This document shows, in pieces, positions 2,546 to 45,171 of a stretch of 64,000 nt of DNA. The notes under the pieces are model-generated. The model had not been told where the DNA came from, did no database searches, and worked only from the letters and a program-made list of their open reading frames with translations. The DNA is taken from NCBI GenBank assembly GCA_020351875.1, contig CP070671.1, positions 1,995,722 through 2,059,721 of the forward strand, in the 5' to 3' direction. Source of the DNA: Chromatiales bacterium. Lineage in GTDB: Bacteria > Pseudomonadota > Gammaproteobacteria > Steroidobacterales > GCA-2729495. Positions within the stretch are counted from its first letter, which is position 1. Every line of letters begins with the position of its first letter. A program made the position numbers and the translations under genes.

Positions 2546-3157
2546 CTAACGTGGCTGAGCTTGTCCAACATAGTGATAGGAGATGAAACGCGGCCCGTCG
2601 AAGTACTCCTTGCGCAGCTCAGAGAACCGGAAACCCGCGGCGTCGATCAGCCGGTCCATGGGCCGGTTCAGCGAGCAGCCCAGCAGCGGGCGGCTCAGCG
2701 GCGTCAGCCGGTCCTGCCACCTGGCCACGCCGGCGTCGGGCGCCCGGCCATGTTCCAGGAACAGCAGGCGACCGGCCGGTTTCAGCACCCGGCGTATCTC
2801 CGACAGCGCGGTGTCCAGATCTTGGATCGAACACAGGGTCCACGTCGTCACGACCGTATCGACGCTGGCATCCTCCAGCGGGATGGCCTCTGCCCCGGCC
2901 TCGATCAGGTCGACTTCAAAGGCCGCGCGCTCGGCGCGTTCCGCGGCTTGTTCCAGCAGCTTGCGGGCCGGTTCCAGCCCGAACACATGGGTCACCTCGT
3001 CGCCGTAATGCTCAAGGTTCAGGCCGGTGCCCAGGCCGACTTCGAGCACCCGGCCGGATGCCAGCGATGGCACCAGCGGTCGGTACTTGGTCATTTGCTT
3101 GTTTTCCATGCCGCGCGCGATCAGCGCAGGCAGGACACGGTCGGCGTACCAGCCCAT
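2546..3157 (-). CDS. class I SAM-dependent methyltransferase
   Basis: VLEVGLGTGLNLEHY is the SAM-binding motif I. Start trimmed to the ATG at 3157 because the longer ORF would overlap the upstream dehalogenase, which stops at 3162. Confidence 0.8.
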   Translation of the reverse strand: MGWYADRVLPALIARGMENKQMTKYRPLVPSLASGRVLEVGLGTGLNLEHYGDEVTHVFGLEPARKLLEQAAERAERAAFEVDLIEAGAEAIPLEDASVDTVVTTWTLCSIQDLDTALSEIRRVLKPAGRLLFLEHGRAPDAGVARWQDRLTPLSRPLLGCSLNRPMDRLIDAAGFRFSELRKEYFDGPRFISYHYVGQAQPR

Positions 3158-3161
3158 GAAA

Positions 3162-4034
3162 TCAGGGTAGCCGGCGCAGCCAGTCGGCGATGGCCGCGCC
3201 AATTTCGGGGCCGGAGTCTTCCTGGATGAAGTGGATGCCACGCACGGTCACTTCGCTCTGGTTCGGCCAGCTGCGGCAAAACTCGCGTGGCGCCCCGGTC
3301 AGGATGGCCCCGGGTTTGGCGTTGATGAACAGCTTCGGGATCTCGCAACGGGCAAGCCACGCAGCGTACTCGCTGACCACGGCGACGACGTCCGCCGGTG
3401 TGCCGTCGATGGGCAGCTCGCGCGGCCATGTCAGGGTGGGGCGCCGATCTTCGCCGGGATTCTCGAACGGGGTGCGGTAGGCCGCCATCTCTTCGGTGCC
3501 CAGTTCCCGGATAATCGATCCCGGCAGCACGCGTTCGACGAACAGGTTTTTCTGCAGCACCAGGTCTTCGCCGGACGCGCTGCGAAATGCCTGGAACAGG
3601 CTGCGCCCGGCTTCCGGCCATTCGCTCCATTTCAGCGGGCGCACGAGCGCCTCCATGTAGACCAGGCCGCGTACACGCTCCGGATGGCGCCGGGCCCAGT
3701 CAAAGCCCAGGGCGGAGCCCCAGTCGTGCAGGACGAGCGTAACCGCATCGCCGAGATCCAGCTGTTCCAGCAGCGCATCGAGGTACCGGCGATGCGTGTT
3801 GAAGCGATAGCTGTCAGCGTTGGAGTTCGCAAGTTTCTGCGACTGGCCCATGCCGATCAGGTCCGGGGCCAGGCAACGGGCCTGCCCGGCGATCTCGGGC
3901 ATCACATCGCGCCACAGGTAACTGGAGGTCGGGTTGCCGTGCAGGAATACCACCGGGTCCCCGGTACCCGCTTCGCGGCACGCCATGGAATGATCGAGCA
4001 CGTCATAGAAGCGCGTTTCGGTAGCCGTGCTCAT
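3162..4034 (-). CDS. haloalkane dehalogenase-type alpha/beta hydrolase
   Basis: 290 aa. VVFLHGNPTSSYLWRDVMP and VLHDWGSALGFDWA (nucleophile elbow with Asp) are hallmark haloalkane dehalogenase (DhaA/DhmA-like) motifs. Confidence 0.85.
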   Translation of the reverse strand: MSTATETRFYDVLDHSMACREAGTGDPVVFLHGNPTSSYLWRDVMPEIAGQARCLAPDLIGMGQSQKLANSNADSYRFNTHRRYLDALLEQLDLGDAVTLVLHDWGSALGFDWARRHPERVRGLVYMEALVRPLKWSEWPEAGRSLFQAFRSASGEDLVLQKNLFVERVLPGSIIRELGTEEMAAYRTPFENPGEDRRPTLTWPRELPIDGTPADVVAVVSEYAAWLARCEIPKLFINAKPGAILTGAPREFCRSWPNQSEVTVRGIHFIQEDSGPEIGAAIADWLRRLP

Positions 4035-4882
4035 TGGCGACGTTTTCGCAGGATCGCGTCGGCAACGAGCGCGAGGAAATCGGCCTCGTTCTCGATGGCT
4101 GCGGCTTCACGCGCCTCCACCGTATATCCGTGAGCGTCGGCCACGCCCTGGTACAGCGGGCGGCGGTGGCGCACCAGTTCCGGGAATATCCAGCTGACGA
4201 AGTGGTCCGGATCGATGTCGTCCGGGCCGTTGAGACTCTTCTCGCGCAAGTACAACGCCAGCCGTTCGTCCAGGAAATCTTCCCGGTAGTACAGCGGTTT
4301 CGGGTTGCTGACCGCGCGCTTGATCAATTCTTCTTCCATGTCGCTGCCCGCGCGCAGGTACAGGATGAGCGTGTGATCGATCAGTGTCTGCATGGCCGCC
4401 GGATTGTCGAGTTCGACGATGCTGCCACCGGCGTCATTCAGAAAATGATCGTAACCGTAGATCTCATTCGACTTGCGGATGAAACTCTTCACGTCGTTCA
4501 TGGCTGCCGCTTCTGCGTCGGCATGCAGATGCTGCCGGCGCTTGAACTCCTCGAGGGACAGCCCGCCGCGGTCGCGACGGCCCAGCTTGCCGAGGAAGCT
4601 GGAAACCGGCTCGAGATTGTGCACTGTGATGTTACTGGCAATGTAAATGGAATCACTGCGCAGCAGGTCGCGCAGGAAGTCCACTTTCATCGCCTGCCGC
4701 TTGATGTTGTCCAGTATCGGCTCTTCCAGGTACTTGGTGCCGATGCGGTAGTCCCCGGAGTAGTGGAACCAGCGACTTTGTGGCAAGCGATTGGCCAGGT
4801 AGGTCTTGCCCACGCCGGACATGCCCAGCAGGGTGATGGCCTTGCGGGGCCAGCGCAGGAATTGTTCCGCGGTCATCTGCAT
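4031..4882 (-). CDS. P-loop NTPase (kinase-like), function unknown
   Basis: Walker A LLGMSGVGKT. Start trimmed to the ATG at 4882 (MQMTAEQF) so it no longer overlaps the HNH gene. Its stop overlaps the dehalogenase start by 4 nt. Confidence 0.7.
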   Translation of the reverse strand: MQMTAEQFLRWPRKAITLLGMSGVGKTYLANRLPQSRWFHYSGDYRIGTKYLEEPILDNIKRQAMKVDFLRDLLRSDSIYIASNITVHNLEPVSSFLGKLGRRDRGGLSLEEFKRRQHLHADAEAAAMNDVKSFIRKSNEIYGYDHFLNDAGGSIVELDNPAAMQTLIDHTLILYLRAGSDMEEELIKRAVSNPKPLYYREDFLDERLALYLREKSLNGPDDIDPDHFVSWIFPELVRHRRPLYQGVADAHGYTVEAREAAAIENEADFLALVADAILRKRRQ

Positions 4883-29719: not shown

Positions 29720-29795
29720 GCGGGCATAGCTCAGTTGGTAGAGCGATACCTTGCCAAGGTATAGGTCGCCAGTTCGAATCTGGTTGCCCGCTCCA
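29720..29795 (+). tRNA. glyW: tRNA-Gly (anticodon GCC)
   Basis: 76-nt cloverleaf folded by hand: acceptor GCGGGCA/TGCCCGC, anticodon loop CTTGCCAAG, TTCGAAT T-loop, encoded CCA. Near-identical layout to E. coli tRNA-Gly(GCC). Confidence 0.93.
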
Positions 29796-30732: not shown

Positions 30733-30806
30733 GGCTAGGTGGCAGAGTGGTTATGCAGCGGCCTGCAAAGCCGTGTACGCCGGTTCGATTCCGACCCTAG
30801 CCTCCA
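30733..30806 (+). tRNA. cysT: tRNA-Cys (anticodon GCA)
   Basis: 74 nt. Acceptor GGCTAGG/CCTAGCC, anticodon loop CTGCAAA, TTCGATT T-loop, encoded CCA. One C-A mismatch in the T-stem. Confidence 0.88.
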
Positions 30807-33571: not shown

Positions 33572-34666
33572 TCAGAAATAGATGTTGAGCTGCAGAAAAT
33601 ACAGGTCCGAATTCTGTTGATCGTTCTGGGAAATGCCGTCCCGGAAACGCGCCCCGGCGCGAAGCTGGGTGTAGGAGAACGGGAAGTATTCGTACACAAC
33701 GCTGACCCGGGTCTGCTCGTCGTCTGACACATCATCATCCGGGTCGAAGCCGCCGTAGGTCAGCTTCAGGTTGTGGCCCTTGGTAATCAGCCAGTTGCCT
33801 TCGGCGAAACCCACCCACTGCTTACGACCGCTCGGTCCGAGGCTGTCATCGTCAATGTAGTCCACTTCCCCGAGCCAGCTGATCGGGCCGGTGCGCAAGC
33901 CGGCGAACCCGCCGGTTACAAAACGGTCGCCCGCGTCGGCGTCGTTGTAATTCACGCTGACGCCAAGCTGCCAGATGTTCTGTACGTAACTGGCCAGCAA
34001 GCTGTACTGCTTGCCGTCATCGGTTTCAGCGCCCCCGGCGCCGCCGTTGGAAATCGCCAACTGGACTGACGCGGGACCCAGTTCGACACCGGCTTCCACA
34101 CCGTCGTCCGGAGAGTTCATGTTGATGCCGACCACCGAACGAATGAACTCCGTGTCGTCCTCGAGGCGGAGGCCGAAGGGCAGGTAGATCTGTCCGGCTT
34201 TCACATAGGCCTTGCGGTCCCAGAAATAGAGCAATGCGAAGGCTTCACGATTGTCCGACGATGGCGATACCTGCTGGTCCAGGTAAAACGTGAGGCGATC
34301 CTTGAGCAGCGGGACCGCGACATACAGGCGACCTTCCTGCACATCGAACTCGGTGTCATTGCCCTGGTTCGGCACTCGCGTATGGGTGAAGTCACCCCGA
34401 AAGTTGGCGCCGATGGTCAGGTACTCCATGACCTCGCCGTCCCAGAAGCCGTCTTCAGGGACGCGAACCGGCATGGTGACCTGGCCAAAGGCATCGCCAT
34501 AGGCGGTGCGCATGCCACCGCCCGTCTGATTCACGTGGCACGCGGAGCACTTGTTGCCGGTCATGACCGCAAAATAGGGTTCCGCCCCGGCGGGTGCCGA
34601 AAAAGCAGCCACCAGGAACAGCGCAGCTGACAGCAGGCAAAGGCGGGGGCAGGCGACGGCAGTCAT
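33572..34666 (-). CDS. outer-membrane beta-barrel with an N-terminal CXXCH haem motif (fused cytochrome-porin, Cyc2-like architecture)
   Basis: Start trimmed to the ATG at 34666, with GGAGGAG 10 nt upstream. Signal peptide, then CSACH at 34535..34549 (residues 40-44). About 320 aa of alternating beta-strand sequence ends in ..LQLNIYF, a C-terminal aromatic OMP signature. Confidence 0.65.
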   Translation of the reverse strand: MTAVACPRLCLLSAALFLVAAFSAPAGAEPYFAVMTGNKCSACHVNQTGGGMRTAYGDAFGQVTMPVRVPEDGFWDGEVMEYLTIGANFRGDFTHTRVPNQGNDTEFDVQEGRLYVAVPLLKDRLTFYLDQQVSPSSDNREAFALLYFWDRKAYVKAGQIYLPFGLRLEDDTEFIRSVVGINMNSPDDGVEAGVELGPASVQLAISNGGAGGAETDDGKQYSLLASYVQNIWQLGVSVNYNDADAGDRFVTGGFAGLRTGPISWLGEVDYIDDDSLGPSGRKQWVGFAEGNWLITKGHNLKLTYGGFDPDDDVSDDEQTRVSVVYEYFPFSYTQLRAGARFRDGISQNDQQNSDLYFLQLNIYF

Positions 34667-34700: not shown

Positions 34701-35903
34701 TCACGGTCTCGCGCCCGCATCGATCCAGGCGCGAATCGCGTCGATCGTGGACTGCGGCAACGGCCCGCCGCCGAGGGGCATCGGGAAGCCGATGACCTGG
34801 TTACCCTCGAGTTTGCGAATGATGTAGCTGTCGTCGGCGTTGAAGGGCTCAACGCGCAGCAACGGCGGTTCACGCTCGCTGGTGACATTAACCAGGCTGG
34901 CCAGGCTGGCCGCGGCGGAACTTAGATCCTGACCCGCCGGCAGGCTCGGCCCCTGCGGGCCTTCGTGGCAACCAGCCGTCGCACAGGTCGGTGTGAAGAC
35001 ATTGTCCTGGATCGAAGCCAGCGTTGGCAGCACTGCTGCCAACCGGAACCCGCTGGTGAAGTCGCCGCCCGCCGTGCCGTCTTCATCACCGTCCAGGAGT
35101 ACGCCGGTGCTGGACGCCAGCGCGGTAGCCCCCGTGCCGACCAGCCGGAGCTCGTAGTCGTCCGCGGCAAACGGCACGCCGGCCATGTCCAGCACGAGCA
35201 GGCGGTCGTTACCGGGCGACAGCGCTACGCTGGCCGGCGTAATCGTGACTTCGTTACCGTCGGCAAAGCTGCCGTCACCACCACTGCGCTGCAGGACCAC
35301 CGTCGCATTGCTGACCAGTGTGCCGTCCATGTCCTGTGTGAAGGTCGCCGTAATCTCGACAGGCAGCTGGTCCAGCACCGCGCCGTCTGCCGGATCGGTG
35401 GCCACCACCGTGGGTGGCCCGCCGCTGCCGGCACCGGGGAGGGCGCCGTCGGTGATCCACTGGCGGATCACGTCCGTGGTGGACTGCGGCACGAAAGGCG
35501 GCCCACTCAACGGCATACGCTGGCCGCCTGCCGCCGTGCCCTCGAGCTTCTGGATCAGGTAACTGGCGTCCGGGTCACCCGGTGCAACGCGCAGCAAAGC
35601 CGGCACCTGGTTACTCGCGATAGTCACGAGCAGTGCGTAGCTGGCGTATTCGCTGAGGTCCAGGCCTTCCGGCGCCGCGGCGCCCACATGGCACCCGGCG
35701 ACCGCGCAGGTGGGCGTAAACACATTCGCCTGGATCGAGTCGAAATTGGGGCCCAGGGGCACGTTGCCGCCACCTTCGGACAACGGTCGCCCGTTCTCGT
35801 CCAGTCCGTCACCGCTGCCTGCTGTGCAAGCAGCCAGCCCCAGCCAAGCCAGCGCGGCCGCGAACAACGCGCGCCATTGTGTCCGGTCGCCAGTCCGCTT
35901 CAT
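34701..35903 (-). CDS. lipoprotein with two duplicated C-X4-CH (putative haem c) modules flanking an Ig-like domain
   Basis: Lipobox LAAC. Module 1 is SIQANVFTPTCAVAGCHVG..., module 2 is SIQDNVFTPTCATAGCHEG..., and each ends in ..WI(T/D)(D/A)GA. The middle part, PPTVVATDPADGAVL...ITATFTQDMD, is bacterial Ig-like (Big_5/SbsA type). Confidence 0.7.
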   Translation of the reverse strand: MKRTGDRTQWRALFAAALAWLGLAACTAGSGDGLDENGRPLSEGGGNVPLGPNFDSIQANVFTPTCAVAGCHVGAAAPEGLDLSEYASYALLVTIASNQVPALLRVAPGDPDASYLIQKLEGTAAGGQRMPLSGPPFVPQSTTDVIRQWITDGALPGAGSGGPPTVVATDPADGAVLDQLPVEITATFTQDMDGTLVSNATVVLQRSGGDGSFADGNEVTITPASVALSPGNDRLLVLDMAGVPFAADDYELRLVGTGATALASSTGVLLDGDEDGTAGGDFTSGFRLAAVLPTLASIQDNVFTPTCATAGCHEGPQGPSLPAGQDLSSAAASLASLVNVTSEREPPLLRVEPFNADDSYIIRKLEGNQVIGFPMPLGGGPLPQSTIDAIRAWIDAGARP

Positions 35904-35987: not shown

Positions 35988-36689
35988 CTATCTGCGGCAA
36001 GAATTCCTGTGTCGCCGCCGCGTCAGCCCGAAAGTGATCGTTAGCGCACACAAAGTTATTCCACTCAACGTGCTGCTGCCGCCGCGTCCCCCGCCGAGGC
36101 TCGACACCGGAACGATGGTCAGGTTACCGGGATCAAAACCGAGATCGGTGATGTATTCCTCACCAAAGTCCACCTCAACCAGCGGGTTCAGGCTCGGGAC
36201 GTTGTTCGAGTTCTGGATCCGGCCCGTGCCGTTGGCGTCGAGTTCCAGCAGCGCCGGGTTAAAGCGGCCGGTGTCGACTTCCCGCCCGTTGAACGTGTAG
36301 ACGATGCCCCCGCCCGCAAGCTCTGCGACCTGCAGCCCGTCGGTCAGTACCGCGTTGGGACTGACCGTGAAACTCAACGAGCTGCCCTGGGCGTAAAACT
36401 CGGTACCCGTCATCGAGCGCTGCAGGGCGAAGGAGGGAAAGCCCGACGGCGTGCCGGGTTCCAGCGTGCCCGAGACGTCGTAGTCGACCGTGGTGATGGC
36501 CGGGTTGTCGTAGGCCATGCCGGCGACGAGCTCCTCGCCCACGAGGATTCGGAACGAGAACGTGGTGACGTCGCTGAACACAGGCATGGCCTGGAAGCTC
36601 GGGCTCGCGAAACGGATCTGGAATGACTGGGCCACAACGGGCGACGACAAGGCTGCCAGGACCAGGACAATCAACAGGCGTACGTTCAT
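35988..36689 (-). CDS. secreted protein with a Gly-rich/TM/Arg-rich C-terminal sorting tag (GlyGly-CTERM-like)
   Basis: Signal peptide MNVRLLIVLVLAALSSPVVAQ. C-terminus SSLGGGRGGSSTLSGITLCALTITFGLTRRRHR. I recognise no domain in the body. Confidence 0.6.
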   Translation of the reverse strand: MNVRLLIVLVLAALSSPVVAQSFQIRFASPSFQAMPVFSDVTTFSFRILVGEELVAGMAYDNPAITTVDYDVSGTLEPGTPSGFPSFALQRSMTGTEFYAQGSSLSFTVSPNAVLTDGLQVAELAGGGIVYTFNGREVDTGRFNPALLELDANGTGRIQNSNNVPSLNPLVEVDFGEEYITDLGFDPGNLTIVPVSSLGGGRGGSSTLSGITLCALTITFGLTRRRHRNSCRR

Positions 36690-36815: not shown

Positions 36816-37775
36816 TCAGGTCGTACGGCGACGCCAGAAGGCGAGACCACCCAGCGCCGACAGGAACAACGGCAGCGCGCCCGGGATCGGGATTATTGCC
36901 AAGCCGAGTTCCACCTCGAGCTTATCTTCCAGCGTGGTTTCGAATTCAGCAAAATTCTCCGCCGTGACGAAGAAGCCGTCCGGGTCACCGGCTACCAGCG
37001 TGGCCAGGAAATCGGGATCCACGTCGCCGACGCCAATGGCATTGACCGTGACGCCGGCCGCTCGCGCGGCATCCGCTTCATCGTAAGCGAGCTGGCGATC
37101 GAGTATATTCTCCGGCGATGTCGGATCGACGTCCAGGCCATCCGAGTTGGGTTCCGTCGGCTCGCCATCCGTGGATATATCGATCACGAGCGCGTCGCCA
37201 TCGATGCCGTTGTTCAAAATCCCTGCGACCTCGCCTTCTTCGACATTGCAGAAGTCAAGTATTGGATTGATCTGCGGAAACATTTCCGAGCCCGGGCAGC
37301 CCGCCGTTCCACCGCTGGTGGCAATGTTTATCGCTTCGGATGTGTTGGTTTTTCCGCCCGGCTGCGGCAGCGTCCCGAACAAGACTCCGAAGTCCGCCGC
37401 TTCCTGGTCATTATTGAGTACGGTCCAGTCGAGGAAACTCGTCACGACGATGTCGAAAGTGACCGTTTCGAGAACGTTGTCGTCTTGATCCGAAATGGGA
37501 ACTGATCCTGCGACCGAGGAAAATACATAGGCCGCGACGGCGACCTGGTCGTACGGGCCTTTCGATACGATGTTCGTAAAAAAGTCGTTCTGGAAGATGT
37601 TCTGGTATGCGCCGATCTGCAGACCCCAGTCGGGACCGGACTCATTACCCCGCGGACCGGAGATACTGCTCGACCCGTCAATAATCAGGGCGAGTTCCAG
37701 CAGCGCAGCGTGCGACGCTGATGCGGAGAACATCAGGAGGGTGGCAACGACGGCCGGGATTACACGTTGACGCAT
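36816..37775 (-). CDS. secreted von Willebrand factor A-like protein with a VPLPA/PEP-CTERM-type sorting tag
   Basis: GGAGG RBS and a signal peptide. VWA-like blocks LALIIDGSSSI, GGKTNTSEAI, VIDISTDGEPT and GVTVNAIGVG. C-terminus IPIPGALPLFLSALGGLAFWRRRTT. Confidence 0.7.
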   Translation of the reverse strand: MRQRVIPAVVATLLMFSASASHAALLELALIIDGSSSISGPRGNESGPDWGLQIGAYQNIFQNDFFTNIVSKGPYDQVAVAAYVFSSVAGSVPISDQDDNVLETVTFDIVVTSFLDWTVLNNDQEAADFGVLFGTLPQPGGKTNTSEAINIATSGGTAGCPGSEMFPQINPILDFCNVEEGEVAGILNNGIDGDALVIDISTDGEPTEPNSDGLDVDPTSPENILDRQLAYDEADAARAAGVTVNAIGVGDVDPDFLATLVAGDPDGFFVTAENFAEFETTLEDKLEVELGLAIIPIPGALPLFLSALGGLAFWRRRTT

Positions 37776-40492: not shown

Positions 40493-41131
40493 ATGATTAA
40501 TTTGTCTAATGACGCGATGCTGGTAGCCGATGAACTGACGCTGTGGCGCGGTGAGCTTTGCCTGTTCGATGGCCTGAGCGTGGCCGTGGAGCCCGGGCAG
40601 GCGCTGATGGTGCGTGGCCCGAACGGGGCGGGCAAGACCACGCTGCTGCGCGTGCTGTGCGGCCTCACGCGTCCGGAAGCGGGGCAAGTCCACTGGTGCG
40701 GCGAGCCGGTGGAGACCAGCGGCGAGCAGTTCGGCCGCGCCCTGGCCTATTGCGGCCACCAGACCGGACTGAAGGCTGACCTGAGCCTCGCGGGCAACCT
40801 GGCCTTTGCCGCGCGACTGGCAGGGCTCCACGGCGAGCCCTGGCGCGACATCATGGCCCAGCTGGGCCTCGCCAGCCGGGCCGACCTGCTCGTCCGCCAC
40901 CTGTCCGCGGGCCAGCAGCGGCGCGGGGCGCTGGTGCGGGCACTCATGGTGCCGGCGCAGCTGTGGGTCTTCGACGAACCATTCACGAACCTCGATGCAG
41001 CCGGCCGCGACTGGCTGGAAGCCCGGCTGGACGCCCACCTGGACCGTGGCGGGATGGCGATCATCGCGGCGCATCATGAACTGCGGCCCCGCCCGGGCCT
41101 GCGGACGCTGGAACTGGCGGAGGCCCGGTAA
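40493..41131 (+). CDS. ccmA: haem exporter ATP-binding protein
   Basis: Walker A GPNGAGKTT and ABC signature LSAGQQRR. First gene of the ccm operon. An alternative ATG lies at 40517. Confidence 0.9.
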   Translation: MINLSNDAMLVADELTLWRGELCLFDGLSVAVEPGQALMVRGPNGAGKTTLLRVLCGLTRPEAGQVHWCGEPVETSGEQFGRALAYCGHQTGLKADLSLAGNLAFAARLAGLHGEPWRDIMAQLGLASRADLLVRHLSAGQQRRGALVRALMVPAQLWVFDEPFTNLDAAGRDWLEARLDAHLDRGGMAIIAAHHELRPRPGLRTLELAEAR

Positions 41132-41133
41132 CC

Positions 41134-41802
41134 ATGGTCACGGTGGTTTCTGCCATCCTGCGGCGCGACCTGGAGCTCGGCTTCCGGCGTTGGGGCGACG
41201 TGGCCAGCCCGCTGATGTTCTTTGCGATCGTCACGGCGTTGTTCCCACTGGCCCTGTCGCCGGCCCGTGAAGTGTTGCAGGGGCTCGGCCCGGGGGTGCT
41301 GTGGATCGCTGCGCTGCTGGCCATGTTGCTGTCCCTGAACGCGCTGTTCCGGCAGGACCTGGAGGACGGCAGCATGGAACAGCTGGTCGTGGGCCCGCAC
41401 CCGTTGCCACTGATCATGCTGGCCAAAGCGCTGGCCCACTGGTTGCTGAGCGGTTTGCCGCTGGTCCTGCTGGCGCCGCTTCTGGCAGTCACCTACCATT
41501 TGCCGGCCGAGGGTGTGCGGGCCCTGTGTGTGACCTTGCTCCTTGGGACGCCGACCCTGAGCCTGCTAGGTTCAGTCGGCGCCGCGCTCACGGCTGGCGT
41601 GCGGCAGTCGGGTGGCTTGCTGGCCCTGCTGATACTGCCGCTGTGCCTGCCGGTGCTGATGTTCGGTAGCCGCGCTACCGCGCTGGCCGCCGAGGGTGAG
41701 GTCGTGACCGGGCCGCTGTACCTGCTCGGCGCACTGCTGGCTTTGGCCGTGACCCTCGTGCCCGCCACGTCGAGCGCCGCCATTCGAATCAGCCTGGATT
41801 GA
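41134..41802 (+). CDS. ccmB: haem exporter permease
   Basis: 222-aa polytopic membrane protein directly after ccmA, CcmB-like throughout. Confidence 0.9.
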   Translation: MVTVVSAILRRDLELGFRRWGDVASPLMFFAIVTALFPLALSPAREVLQGLGPGVLWIAALLAMLLSLNALFRQDLEDGSMEQLVVGPHPLPLIMLAKALAHWLLSGLPLVLLAPLLAVTYHLPAEGVRALCVTLLLGTPTLSLLGSVGAALTAGVRQSGGLLALLILPLCLPVLMFGSRATALAAEGEVVTGPLYLLGALLALAVTLVPATSSAAIRISLD

Positions 41803-41823
41803 GTCCGAGAGAGTCGACACGCG

Positions 41824-42579
41824 ATGAAACTGCCCACCTGGTTCCACAAGCTCGGCTCGCCGCCGCATTTCTATCGGCTGGCGACGTTGCTGACACCGTG
41901 GTTTTACGTGCCGGCCGTCTTGCTGTTGCTGGCGGGTACCTACGGCGGGCTCGTGCTGGCGCCGGCCGACTATCAGCAGGGCGATGGTTTTCGCATCATT
42001 TACGTGCACGTGCCGAGCGCCTACCTGTCGACCATGGTCTATGGCGTGATGGCCGTCGCGTCCGCCATCGGCCTGATCTGGCGCATGAAGCTGGCCCACT
42101 CCGTGGCAGCCGCAGCCGCGCCGATCGGGGCGTGGTTCACTTTTCTCGCGCTCGTCACCGGCGCCATCTGGGGCAAGCCCATGTGGGGCACTTACTGGGA
42201 GTGGGACCCGCGGCTGACCTCCGAGCTGATCCTGCTGTTCATCTATCTCGGCTACATCAGCCTGCGCGGCGCCTTCGACGACCGCGACAAGGCCGACCGC
42301 GCCTGCGCAGTGCTGGCACTGGTCGGTGTGGTGAATCTGCCGATCATTCACTATTCGGTGATCTGGTGGAGCAGCATCCACCAGGGCCCAACCATCAAGA
42401 AGCTGGATGCACCCTCTATCACCGGCGACATGCTGTGGCCCCTGCTGGTGATGATCCTGGCCTACACGCTGATTTTCGCCGCCCTGTTGCTGCAGCGCGT
42501 CCGGGCGGAAGTGCTGGACCGGGAGCGGAATGCGCGCTGGGTCTTGGATATCATGGGCGCACCGGCACAGGGAAACTGA
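41824..42579 (+). CDS. ccmC: haem exporter / haem lyase-associated protein
   Basis: WWD motif WGKPMWGTYWEWDPRL. Confidence 0.92.
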   Translation: MKLPTWFHKLGSPPHFYRLATLLTPWFYVPAVLLLLAGTYGGLVLAPADYQQGDGFRIIYVHVPSAYLSTMVYGVMAVASAIGLIWRMKLAHSVAAAAAPIGAWFTFLALVTGAIWGKPMWGTYWEWDPRLTSELILLFIYLGYISLRGAFDDRDKADRACAVLALVGVVNLPIIHYSVIWWSSIHQGPTIKKLDAPSITGDMLWPLLVMILAYTLIFAALLLQRVRAEVLDRERNARWVLDIMGAPAQGN

Positions 42580-42582
42580 CCG

Positions 42583-42750
42583 GTGAGTGATTTTCTCGCG
42601 ATGGGCGGCTACGCCGAATACGTCTGGAGTACCTTCGGGCTCACGGCGGTCGTCCTGGTTATCAATATGGTCGGTGCCCGGCGCCGGCTGCGAAATTCGC
42701 TGCGCGAAGCCGGCTTGCGGGCCGCGCGGCAAAGGAGACAGGCGTCATGA
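42583..42750 (+). CDS. ccmD: haem exporter subunit CcmD (55 aa; absent from the ORF track)
   Basis: Hand translation from the GTG at 42583 gives VSDFLAMGGYAEYVWSTFGLTAVVLVINMVGARRRLRNSLREAGLRAARQRRQAS. FLAMGGYAxYVW is the CcmD signature. The stop overlaps the ccmE ATG (ATGA). An alternative ATG lies at 42601. Confidence 0.85.
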   Translation: MSDFLAMGGYAEYVWSTFGLTAVVLVINMVGARRRLRNSLREAGLRAARQRRQAS

Positions 42751-43202
42751 AACCCAGGAAACAACGGATGGCAATAGTTGCAGTCATCCTGGTGGGCGTA
42801 GCCATCGCAGTGGGGCTGACGCTGCAGGCCTTCGAAGAGGGTGTGAGCTTTTTCTACAGTCCGAGCGAGTTGCTCGCCGGTGACGCGCCGCAAGGCCGCA
42901 AGGTGCGCATGGGCGGGCTGGTGCTCGAAGGCAGCGTGGTTCGCGAACCGGGCTCCATGGAAGTGATCTTCGACGTCACCGACATGGAAAACACCGTGCA
43001 GGTCAGCTACACGGGTGTGTTGCCCGACCTGTTCCGCGACGGGCAGGGGGTTGTAGCGCACGGCGTGATGCAGCCCGACGGGCAATTCGTTGCCGAAAAG
43101 ATCCTGGCCAAGCACGACGAGAACTACATGTCCCCGGAAGTGGCCGACATGCTCGCCGAAAAGGGTCACCCGCAAGGCGCGCCGGACGTCGCCGCCAACT
43201 GA
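42747..43202 (+). CDS. ccmE: cytochrome c maturation haem chaperone
   Basis: N-terminal anchor, OB fold and the haem-binding HxxxY motif (AKHDENY). Confidence 0.93.
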   Translation: MKPRKQRMAIVAVILVGVAIAVGLTLQAFEEGVSFFYSPSELLAGDAPQGRKVRMGGLVLEGSVVREPGSMEVIFDVTDMENTVQVSYTGVLPDLFRDGQGVVAHGVMQPDGQFVAEKILAKHDENYMSPEVADMLAEKGHPQGAPDVAAN

Positions 43203-43209
43203 GTCGAGC

Positions 43210-45171
43210 ATGATCCCCGAACTCGGACAGCTCTGCCTGGCGCTGGCCTTCTGTCTGGCCGCGATCCAGGGCGTACTCCCGCTGGTCGGTGCCGGCAGCC
43301 AGCGCTACCGGGCCTGGACTCGCGTCGCAACGCCGGCCGCTGCCGGCCACTTTGTCTTTGTCGCCATCGCGTTCGGGCTGCTCACGTGGTCGTTCCTCGC
43401 GAACGACTTCTCGGTGCTGTACGTGGCCAGCAATTCCAACAGCCAGTTGCCCACGCTCTACCGCGTGGCCGCGGTGTGGGGCGGCCACGAAGGTTCACTG
43501 CTGCTGTGGGCGCTGGTGCTCGGCTGCTGGACGGTCGCAGTGCTGATTTCCAGCCGGTCACTGCCGGAAGCGATGGCCGCGCGCATCATCGGCGTGATGG
43601 GCGTCGTGAGCGCCGGCTTCCTGCTGTTCATCATGATTACATCCAACCCGTTTTTGCGGCTGGACCCGATCCCGCTGGACGGTAACGACCTGAACCCGCT
43701 GCTGCAGGATCCGGCCATGGCCCTGCACCCGCCGATGCTCTACATCGGCTACGTCGGCTTTTCGGTGGCCTTCGCGTTTGCGGTGGCCGCACTGCTGGCG
43801 GGCAAAGTCGACCGCGACTGGGCGCGCTGGGCCCGGCCGTGGACCACCGCGGCCTGGACCTTCCTGACCGTGGGCATTGCACTGGGCAGCTGGTGGGCCT
43901 ACTACGAGCTCGGCTGGGGCGGCTGGTGGTTCTGGGACCCGGTGGAAAACGCATCCTTCATGCCGTGGCTGGTGGGCACCGCCCTGATTCATTCGCTGGC
44001 CGTGACGGAAAAACGCGGCCTGTTCAAGGGCTCCACGCTGCTGCTGGCCATCGCGGCCTTTGGCCTGAGTTTGCTGGGCACCTTTCTCGTGCGCTCGGGC
44101 ATTCTCGTGTCGGTGCATTCCTTCGCCAGTGACCCGACCCGTGGATTGTTTATTCTCGCGTTTCTGGCGCTGGTGGTCGGTGGCGCGCTGACTTTGTACG
44201 CCGTCCGGGCGGGTACCCTCGACCGCGAAGTCGGCTTTGCGCCGCTGTCGCGCGAGACTTTCCTGCTGATCAACAACATCCTGCTCAGCATCGCGGCCGG
44301 GCTGGTGCTGTTTGGCACCATCGCGCCGCTGGTGCTCGAGGGTTTTAACCTCGGCAAGATTTCGGTGGGCCCACCGTATTTCGAAATCGCATTCCTGTTC
44401 CCGACCTTGCCGCTGGTCCTCGCCGTCGGTGTCGGCATGCACACGGCCTGGCGTTCGGCCGATGGCAGCGCGCTGGCGCGTCGCCTGCGCTGGCCCGCGC
44501 TGATCGCCGTGGTCGGCGGCATCGCGCTGCCATGGCTGGTCTACGGCAGCCAGAGTGTGCTGACGGCGGTCGGCGTTGCGGCCGGGCTGTGGCTCGTCGG
44601 CAGCGCAGTCCTGGATCCCGTCGCGAAGCTGCTCGGGCGCGGGCCGCGACTAACCCGCGGCGTGATTGGCATGCAGCTGGCCCATTTCGGCCTCGGGCTG
44701 TTCGTGCTGGGTGTCACCGTGGTGTCCACCTACACGGTGGAAACCGACCAGCGGCTCGCGCTGGGTGAAACGATCGAGGTGTCGGACTTCCAGGTGACCT
44801 TCCGCGATCTGCAGGCCGTCGAGGGCCCCAACTACCAGGCCGTGCGCGCCGAAATGCACCTGCGCCGCGGGGAGCGTTCGGTTGCGCTGCTGTTTCCCGA
44901 AAAACGGATTTACCGCGTGCAAACTTCGCCGATGACCGAGGCCGCCATTGACGGTCGCTGGCACCGCGACGTGTTCATTGCACTGGGCGACGATTTGGGG
45001 GCCGGGGCTTGGAGCGTGCGCATCCAGTACAAGCCCCTGATCCGTTTCATCTGGCTCGGCTGCCTGTTGATGGCCTTCGGCGGGCTGGTCGCAATCTCCG
45101 ATCCACGTTATCGCCGGGCGCGCCAGCAGGCGGCCGCCGCCGATGACACCGCGCAAGCCAGCGCGAGCTGA
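43210..45171 (+). CDS. ccmF: cytochrome c haem lyase subunit
   Basis: Start trimmed to the ATG at 43210 (MIPELGQLCLALAF). WWD motif GWGGWWFWDPVENASFMPW. Confidence 0.93.
   Translation: MIPELGQLCLALAFCLAAIQGVLPLVGAGSQRYRAWTRVATPAAAGHFVFVAIAFGLLTWSFLANDFSVLYVASNSNSQLPTLYRVAAVWGGHEGSLLLWALVLGCWTVAVLISSRSLPEAMAARIIGVMGVVSAGFLLFIMITSNPFLRLDPIPLDGNDLNPLLQDPAMALHPPMLYIGYVGFSVAFAFAVAALLAGKVDRDWARWARPWTTAAWTFLTVGIALGSWWAYYELGWGGWWFWDPVENASFMPWLVGTALIHSLAVTEKRGLFKGSTLLLAIAAFGLSLLGTFLVRSGILVSVHSFASDPTRGLFILAFLALVVGGALTLYAVRAGTLDREVGFAPLSRETFLLINNILLSIAAGLVLFGTIAPLVLEGFNLGKISVGPPYFEIAFLFPTLPLVLAVGVGMHTAWRSADGSALARRLRWPALIAVVGGIALPWLVYGSQSVLTAVGVAAGLWLVGSAVLDPVAKLLGRGPRLTRGVIGMQLAHFGLGLFVLGVTVVSTYTVETDQRLALGETIEVSDFQVTFRDLQAVEGPNYQAVRAEMHLRRGERSVALLFPEKRIYRVQTSPMTEAAIDGRWHRDVFIALGDDLGAGAWSVRIQYKPLIRFIWLGCLLMAFGGLVAISDPRYRRARQQAAAADDTAQASAS

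Follow-up and report, generated by a model that had tools for sequence, protein, structure and literature searches.

We analyzed a reverse-strand open reading frame (ORF) at 34701..35903, stop codon included, in a 64,000-nucleotide stretch of a Chromatiales bacterium genome (contig CP070671.1, positions 1,995,722 to 2,059,721). This stretch is hereafter called the window, and its numbering is used throughout. The ORF is open and translates into a protein of 400 aa, designated P0001. Our reading, to which we assign a probability of about 80%, is that P0001 is an outer-membrane-anchored lipoprotein cytochrome with two His/Met-ligated haems, related to the Fe(II) oxidoreductase FoxE, that would relay electrons for a haem-porin encoded by the adjacent gene. 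The evidence that carries this reading comes from an internal repeat, from the conservation of haem c ligands around a cysteine motif of variable length, from profile matches to FoxE and from recurrent pairing with the porin gene.

Internal repeat and haem attachment motifs

The protein begins with a signal peptide that ends in the lipobox L-A-A-C (35826..35903); Cys26 (35826..35828) is the predicted lipid-anchor residue and is followed by Thr at position +2. A Gly-rich tether with the motif GLDENGRPL occupies residues 27-52 (35748..35825) and leads into module 1 (residues 53-152; 35448..35747), while module 2 (residues 294-400; 34704..35024) closes the protein; all of these features lie on the reverse strand. 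The original prediction described the two modules as paralogous repeats, and a single BLASTP comparison bore this out, with 53 identities in 99 positions (54%) at E 2e-27, a similarity far above chance. The same prediction placed a Cys-X4-Cys-His (CX4CH) motif in each repeat, and direct reading of the sequence found both strings. Module 1 carries CAVAGCH (Cys66, Cys71 and His72) at 35688..35708, encoded on the reverse strand by TGC GCG GTC GCC GGG TGC CAT (35708..35688), and module 2 carries CATAGCH (Cys307, Cys312 and His313) at 34965..34985, encoded by TGT GCG ACG GCT GGT TGC CAC (34985..34965). These four cysteines and the lipobox cysteine are the five present in P0001. Each module also contains a Met-Pro pair, Met130-Pro131 (35511..35516) and Met375-Pro376 (34776..34781), in which the methionine is a predicted distal axial ligand of a haem.

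Relatives of P0001 numbered at least 2394 at E<=1e-3 among the 8000 candidates scored, and the 107-residue module 2 as a query identified 4234 representative clusters at the same threshold. In an alignment of 66 orthologues (A1), Cys26, Cys66, Cys71, His72, Met130-Pro131, Cys307 and Met375-Pro376 were invariant. Cys312 and His313 were kept in at least 90% of rows, the rest being alignment shifts, and no second His was conserved. The tether was nearly invariant in A1. The spacing between the cysteines was variable. Distinct module copies, 640 in all, were gathered from 266 database proteins and from 80 species-representative genomes (one locus each, mostly metagenome-assembled genomes labelled Woeseia, Woeseiaceae or Gammaproteobacteria), a pool biased towards relatives of a CX4CH query. 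The canonical CXXCH (CX2CH) was present in 326 copies, CX4CH in 304, CX3CH in 7, and CX1CH and CX5CH in one each; the sole motif-less copy was a degenerate module in a protein of 3575 residues (P0163). In 632 of the 640, the motif His was followed by Met-Pro, and the median distance was 58-59 residues regardless of the Cys-Cys spacing. Among the best 120 full-length relatives, 87 combined one CXXCH with one CX4CH, 17 had two CXXCH and 11 had two CX4CH, the window protein being among the 11; in those mixed rows that were inspected, module 1 had the CXXCH and module 2 the CX4CH. When relatives were aligned, the first Cys and the Cys-His were in register, and a two-residue indel between them was the whole difference.

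The full His/Met ligand set of a haem c is thus kept while the Cys-Cys spacing toggles, which points strongly to CX4CH as a haem attachment site. Such toggling around a constant set of ligands, as it appears in these alignments, is very hard to explain otherwise, and we regard haem binding as nearly certain from the conservation pattern, with one covalent haem c predicted per module. CX4CH has been described as a less common haem-binding motif (PMC11492766). The original prediction had likewise read CX4CH as a variant haem c site, and the presence of CXXCH at the same aligned position in orthologues, together with invariant Cys, Cys-His and Met-Pro, upholds that claim. Its alternatives, metal binding or a purely structural role, found no support given the interchange of CXXCH and CX4CH with the ligand set retained. 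It had also asked whether homologues lose the Cys and His residues and whether CX4CH is invariant. Loss of the motif in a single one of 640 copies favours haem; as for invariance, the Cys, Cys-His and Met-Pro residues were kept but the spacing was not, as the 326 CXXCH copies attest. The original prediction did not foresee the relation to FoxE, the interchange of the two spacings or the recurrent porin gene downstream.

Two further observations bear on haem attachment. The AlphaFold2 model of the full-length protein had a mean predicted local distance difference test score (pLDDT) of 84.5 and a predicted template modelling score (pTM) of 0.75, and pLDDT fell below 50 only at residues 67-70, 308-311 and 314-317, which are the CX4CH loops; low confidence there is expected because a cofactor site was modelled without its cofactor. 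In addition, the window encodes System I cytochrome c maturation (Ccm) genes, ccmA, ccmB, ccmC, ccmE and ccmF, at 40493..45171 on the forward strand. They were identified by NCBIfam equivalog matches (CcmA 8e-66, CcmB 3e-68, CcmC 7e-78, CcmE 6e-57 and CcmF 2e-211) and form a complete-looking cluster 5 kb from the cytochrome gene.

Two readings would deny haem to P0001. If Cys-X4-Cys-His bound Zn, Fe or Cu without haem, or formed a structural disulfide within a degenerate cytochrome-like fold that has no cofactor, the absence of any cytochrome Pfam match to P0001 itself would be accounted for, as would the CopC-like fold of its central domain, which has a sub-threshold CopC match at E 8e-4. We judge this very improbable: the aligned position is a canonical CXXCH in about half of the 640 copies, the spacing switches repeatedly and yet Cys, Cys, His and Met-Pro are all kept, and a non-haem site would have no reason to keep haem c ligands. 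Moreover, FoxE aligns in register and holds haem in its crystal structure, and the central immunoglobulin (Ig)-like domain is devoid of conserved His, Met or Cys. The second reading restricts haem to CXXCH modules, so that CX4CH modules, including both in P0001, would be decayed and the protein non-functional or purely scaffolding. It draws on the recent conversion of window module 1 from CXXCH and on the loss from the window copy of a C-terminal Big_7 domain that its closest relatives keep (both described below). Its chance is close to negligible, as decay fits poorly with 304 distinct CX4CH copies that retain Cys, Cys and His in 100% of cases along with Met-Pro, and that follow the consensus F-T-P-[TS]-C-[AS]-x-[SA]-G-C-H-x-G; in 90% of them the second Cys is preceded by Gly. 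Proteins of the CX4CH/CX4CH type make up 27 of the 80 species loci, a large clade among them; single-module lipoproteins with solely a CX4CH site exist; and CX4CH haem sites function elsewhere (PMC11492766).

The history of the spacing was reconstructed on a maximum-likelihood tree (quick tree search) for 77 proteins with two modules, which represent each species genome once and include the window protein. Module 1 needs only 2 spacing changes on this tree and module 2 needs 16, at least 9 of which are forced by branches with a Shimodaira-Hasegawa-like approximate likelihood ratio test (SH-aLRT) value of at least 95. P0001 and its relative L019 (79-81% identical) are the only CX4CH/CX4CH members of a well-supported clade of 38; the remaining 36 have CXXCH in module 1, and module 1 of the window protein is therefore a recent CXXCH-to-CX4CH convert. 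Recent gene conversion from module 2 was considered as the source and rejected, because synonymous differences between the two motif regions are numerous, a pattern that indicates an independent 6-nt insertion. We propose that CX4CH would be a functionally equivalent two-residue expansion of CXXCH, with the consensus C-[AS]-x-[SA]-G-C-H, that has arisen and reverted many times in the family.

Both c-type cytochromes of the PSCyt1/FoxE type and the CX4CH motif are already known. In the literature searched, the occurrence of CX4CH in about half the copies of a monohaem His/Met module appears to be undescribed, as does the free interchange of CXXCH and CX4CH with the resulting invisibility of CX4CH copies to annotation. 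A cytochrome module with CX4CH can escape both Pfam and NCBIfam, and haem counts, or inventories of cytochromes and iron cycling, that are built on CXXCH or PSCyt1 miss such proteins. Relatives of the module run into the thousands (the 4234 clusters above). The family is also a natural experiment, in which a predicted His/Met monohaem module comes with two, three or four residues between its cysteines, and it is suited to asking how spacing affects haem attachment by Ccm, haem ruffling and redox potential.

Relationship to FoxE and other cytochromes

Profiles built on the family were compared with PDB sequences by hmmsearch and matched FoxE (5mab and 5mvo) at E 4.3e-6 with the full-length profile A1 and at 7e-6 with the module profile A3; the next matches, cytochromes c6 and c550, had E values of 0.04 and above. 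Both haem domains of FoxE aligned in register with the modules at the CXXCH, at the methionine of R-M-P-L-G, with which Met130-Pro131 aligns, and at the terminal W-I-x-x-G-A helix. Homology to FoxE, as we read these alignments, rests on sequence profiles. Among the 66 orthologues scanned singly, PSCyt1 (PF07635) matched 54, Cytochrome_CBB3 22 and Cytochrome_C 2. These orthologues bear out the resemblance to planctomycete cytochrome domains that had been suggested at the outset; P0001 itself escapes PSCyt1 on account of the two extra residues in each of its motifs. Modelled by itself, module 2 (pLDDT 79.8) is predicted to be a small unit of four helices.

FoxE comes from the photoferrotroph Rhodobacter ferrooxidans SW2 and is a dihaem cytochrome in which methionines are the distal ligands and a disulfide, Cys80-Cys258, is stabilising (PMC10654088). 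Like P0001, it is exported, and its two haem c modules, likewise in tandem, belong to the same sequence family and have His/Met ligation, which in P0001 is predicted. The modules of P0001 are, by sequence, homologous to the two FoxE haem domains, here split by an Ig-like spacer of ~125 residues, whereas those of FoxE are contiguous. FoxE has canonical CXXCH twice where P0001 has CX4CH twice; it is soluble and devoid of a lipid anchor, in contrast to the lipobox of P0001; and its disulfide has no counterpart in P0001, which has no spare Cys. Finally, FoxE is encoded in the foxEYZ operon with the pyrroloquinoline quinone (PQQ) protein FoxY and the transporter FoxZ, whereas the neighbour of P0001 is a haem-porin.

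The same type of module is found in PSCyt1 and in the C-terminal half of TIGR03806, which share a CxxCH near the N-terminus followed by PG-P--S, MP and W-I--GA. PSCyt1 is usually N-terminal in very large PSCyt2/PSD1 proteins, whereas here the module is part of a small lipoprotein. Cytochrome c3 offers a different comparison; its haems are bis-His-ligated and low-potential, and are held in a compact multihaem fold. The tetrahaem cytochrome c3 of Desulfovibrio shares with P0001 the Cys-X4-Cys-His spacing for covalent haem (PMC11492766). It belongs to a different sequence family, however: each P0001 module has one predicted haem, an invariant Met and no second conserved His, and searches with Pfam, PDB, profiles and Foldseek found no c3 family or structure match for P0001.

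Partner porin, probable membrane sorting and proposed electron transfer

The gene that follows the cytochrome gene on the reverse strand (33572..34666) encodes a porin-like barrel of 364 aa with a signal peptide, a C-terminal Phe and a weak Pfam match to Porin_O_P (E 0.003). It starts 34 nt after the cytochrome stop codon, behind a good Shine-Dalgarno sequence, and its product carries a CSACH motif (34535..34549) that sits 13 residues into the mature chain. The same cytochrome-porin pair was found in four metagenomic contigs with otherwise unrelated neighbours, where the porins are 45-59% identical and their CXXCH is invariant. Across the 80 species loci, a porin homologue was downstream on the same strand in 63 and directly adjacent in 59; 3 loci end too early to judge.

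A barrel with one N-terminal CXXCH is the architecture of Cyc2, and we call the porin Cyc2-like by that architecture only, as the model libraries scanned gave no match to a curated Cyc2 model. Homologues of Cyc2 have been reported, and found expressed, in Woeseiaceae (PMC6850669). The pairing, with putative co-transcription, of a cytochrome gene and an outer-membrane barrel gene recalls the MtrCAB and Cyc2-Cyc1 conduits, and MtrC is a lipoprotein cytochrome partner like P0001. Unlike in those systems, the partner gene here is upstream of the porin gene and encodes a dihaem protein of FoxE/PSCyt1 type, not a c4-type Cyc1 or a decahaem cytochrome. Our reading of the literature on the cytochrome-porin cassette, PSCyt1 biochemistry and Ccm tolerance of CX4CH found no direct description, and a lipoprotein with an Ig spacer coupled to a Cyc2-like porin also appears to be undescribed.

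Lipobox and tether sequences bear on where these proteins reside. In E. coli, Asp after the lipidated Cys is an inner-membrane retention signal (the +2 rule). A lipobox-like motif was present in 77 of the 80 species loci. In the 60 porin-paired copies with a recognisable lipobox, the +2 residue was G, T or S in 50 and Asp in 4, whereas in a clade of unpaired paralogues it was Asp in 10 of 12 (C-D-V-E-T-F-D). By the E. coli rule, the outer membrane would be the destination of the porin-paired form, and the unpaired paralogue would be retained in the inner membrane; P0001 is probably an outer-membrane protein, since it has Thr and not Asp at +2. Genomes with both forms hint, from these signals, at a pair of related cytochromes with one member in each membrane. 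The tether is Gly- or Pro-rich and of low complexity in most members, and the motif GxGxGLDxxGRPLxEGG is nearly invariant in the sub-clade of the window protein (17 of the 63 loci with a porin partner and 19 of the full set of 80). We considered GLDENGRPL as a general signal for docking to the porin and rejected it because it is confined to that one sub-clade.

We propose that P0001 would be exported by Sec, then lipidated at Cys26 and then probably sorted to the outer membrane. The Ccm system would attach one haem per module through two thioether bonds each, at Cys66/Cys71 and Cys307/Cys312, with His72 and His313 as proximal ligands and Met130 and Met375 as distal ligands, each of the haem in its own or in the other module. 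The lipoprotein would then pass electrons between the single haem of the Cyc2-like porin and periplasmic carriers. The likeliest direction is inward, with Fe(II) or some other extracellular donor supplying the electrons, since haems with His/Met ligation tend to have high potentials and Fe(II) is what the nearest characterised relative oxidises.

Several observations weigh against this proposal. P0001 itself matched no cytochrome family in Pfam at E<=1, PSCyt1 included, and its NCBIfam cytochrome matches were all sub-threshold (LIC11213-family lipoprotein at 5e-5, and the C-terminal part of TIGR03806, the SO2930-family dihaem cytochrome, at 2e-4 over residues 103-151). A search of its sequence against PDB found no match, the cytochrome matches having come only from profiles built on relatives. 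Foldseek matches to the model of module 2 were weak: the C-terminal haem domain of hydrazine synthase alpha was found at E 0.07 (probability 0.84), and FoxE ranked third to fourth against this haem-less model, at E 1-2.5 and a template modelling score (TM-score) of 0.25. Since the Met ligands of FoxE are reported to be swapped between its domains, ligation within each module is not assured here (PMC10654088). The foxEYZ context is absent; the genes near that of P0001 encode the haem-porin, a methyltransferase, a VWA protein and unknown proteins, and none of the products has a PQQ or transporter domain. Furthermore, 14 loci have room for a porin and lack one, including the well-supported clade of 12 paralogues, some of which are in genomes that also hold a porin-paired copy. 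The pair is accessory, being present in 7 of 41 related genomes and in 2 of 12 in the genus, a patchy distribution that argues against a core respiratory component. Outer-membrane sorting relies on a rule taken from E. coli, and the direction of electron flow, the substrate and the side of the membrane that the protein faces (periplasmic or surface-exposed) are likewise inferred.

A dihaem cytochrome might be real and still act differently, by transferring electrons outward (to extracellular Fe(III), Mn(IV) and the like), by serving the periplasm or outer membrane as a general redox shuttle, or as a protein of peroxide or redox stress. The functional anchors are limited to FoxE homology (E about 1e-6) and adjacency to the haem-porin, neither of which fixes a direction; no further genes for iron oxidation were recognised next to the pair, and the distribution is patchy. 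We nonetheless think such a role unlikely. Metal-reducing conduits use bis-His, low-potential multihaem proteins, whereas this family has an invariant His/Met set and conserves no second His, as is typical where haems are high-potential. Its closest relative with a solved structure oxidises Fe(II).

Inward transfer by a FoxE-related lipoprotein thus remains our preferred role, and we extend it tentatively, with more doubt than conviction, to the suggestion that the FoxE-like lipoprotein and the Cyc2-like haem-porin may form a new two-gene outer-membrane conduit for electron uptake, widespread in Woeseiaceae and other sediment Gammaproteobacteria. Annotation would largely overlook such a conduit, CX4CH being the motif in about half of its haem modules. 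The Asp+2 (inner-membrane) paralogue that some genomes add could complete a relay from membrane to membrane, and in that case the repeated switches between CXXCH and CX4CH would tune haem potential or geometry. The lineages that carry the pair abound in marine sediments and are not classed as iron oxidisers; if the pair does take up extracellular electrons, that capacity becomes directly testable in them.

Ig-like domains and neighbouring genes

The two modules flank an Ig-like spacer at residues about 163-288 (35040..35417, reverse strand), as had been expected from the sequence. Pfam Big_5 matched residues 163-231 at 28.9 bits, above the gathering score of 23.6 (E 2e-6), and AlphaFold2 predicted a beta-sandwich with strands at 166-288 and pLDDT of 92-97. 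Foldseek matches to the full-length model fell only on this spacer and comprised the Ig domains of the S-layer protein SbsC and CopC-like domains, with TM-scores of up to 0.83 normalised to the target. We rejected a CopC-type copper site because an internal domain leaves no N-terminal His brace possible and because the 66-sequence alignment had no conserved Cys, His or Met in the spacer. Two conserved, acidic, Gly-rich loops in the spacer, SGGDGxFxDGNE and LDGDxDGxxGGDF, look like calcium-binding loops.

In the closest relatives, P0002 and P0004 (89% and 79% identical; 494 aa), module 2 is followed by a C-terminal Big_7 Ig-like domain of ~94 residues, which in relative L019 lies at L019:4195-4563. 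The window protein ends directly after module 2 (34701..34706), and the gap from the cytochrome gene to the porin gene is 34 nt in the window versus about 334 nt in the closest relatives; the window copy has therefore lost its Big_7 domain. The module is also found outside the two-module architecture, both by itself in lipoproteins of about 140-190 aa that have one CX4CH site and many times over in giant proteins. Carriers of these other forms include P0163 (3575 aa), P0122 (960 aa), P0124 and P0126, and copies per protein range from one to at least seven. The genome of the window holds no further copy. The porin-less clade of 12 consists of L080, L084-L086, L089-L092, L094-L096 and L098, with matches at about 3001-4100 of these loci.

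Two genes upstream of the cytochrome gene, at 35988..36689 and 36816..37775 on the reverse strand, end in sequences resembling C-terminal sorting tags, with a Gly-rich tail, a transmembrane helix and an Arg cluster; the VWA/DUF1194 protein has a weak VPLPA-CTERM match. We considered these genes, which encode a 233-aa protein and the VWA/VPLPA-CTERM protein, as members of the system and rejected them, as they are not beside the pair even in the 79%-identical relative. Finally, tRNA-Gly(GCC) (29720..29795) and tRNA-Cys(GCA) (30733..30806) lie upstream of the block that holds the pair, and these tRNAs, together with the patchy distribution, are consistent with an accessory insertion in a tRNA array.

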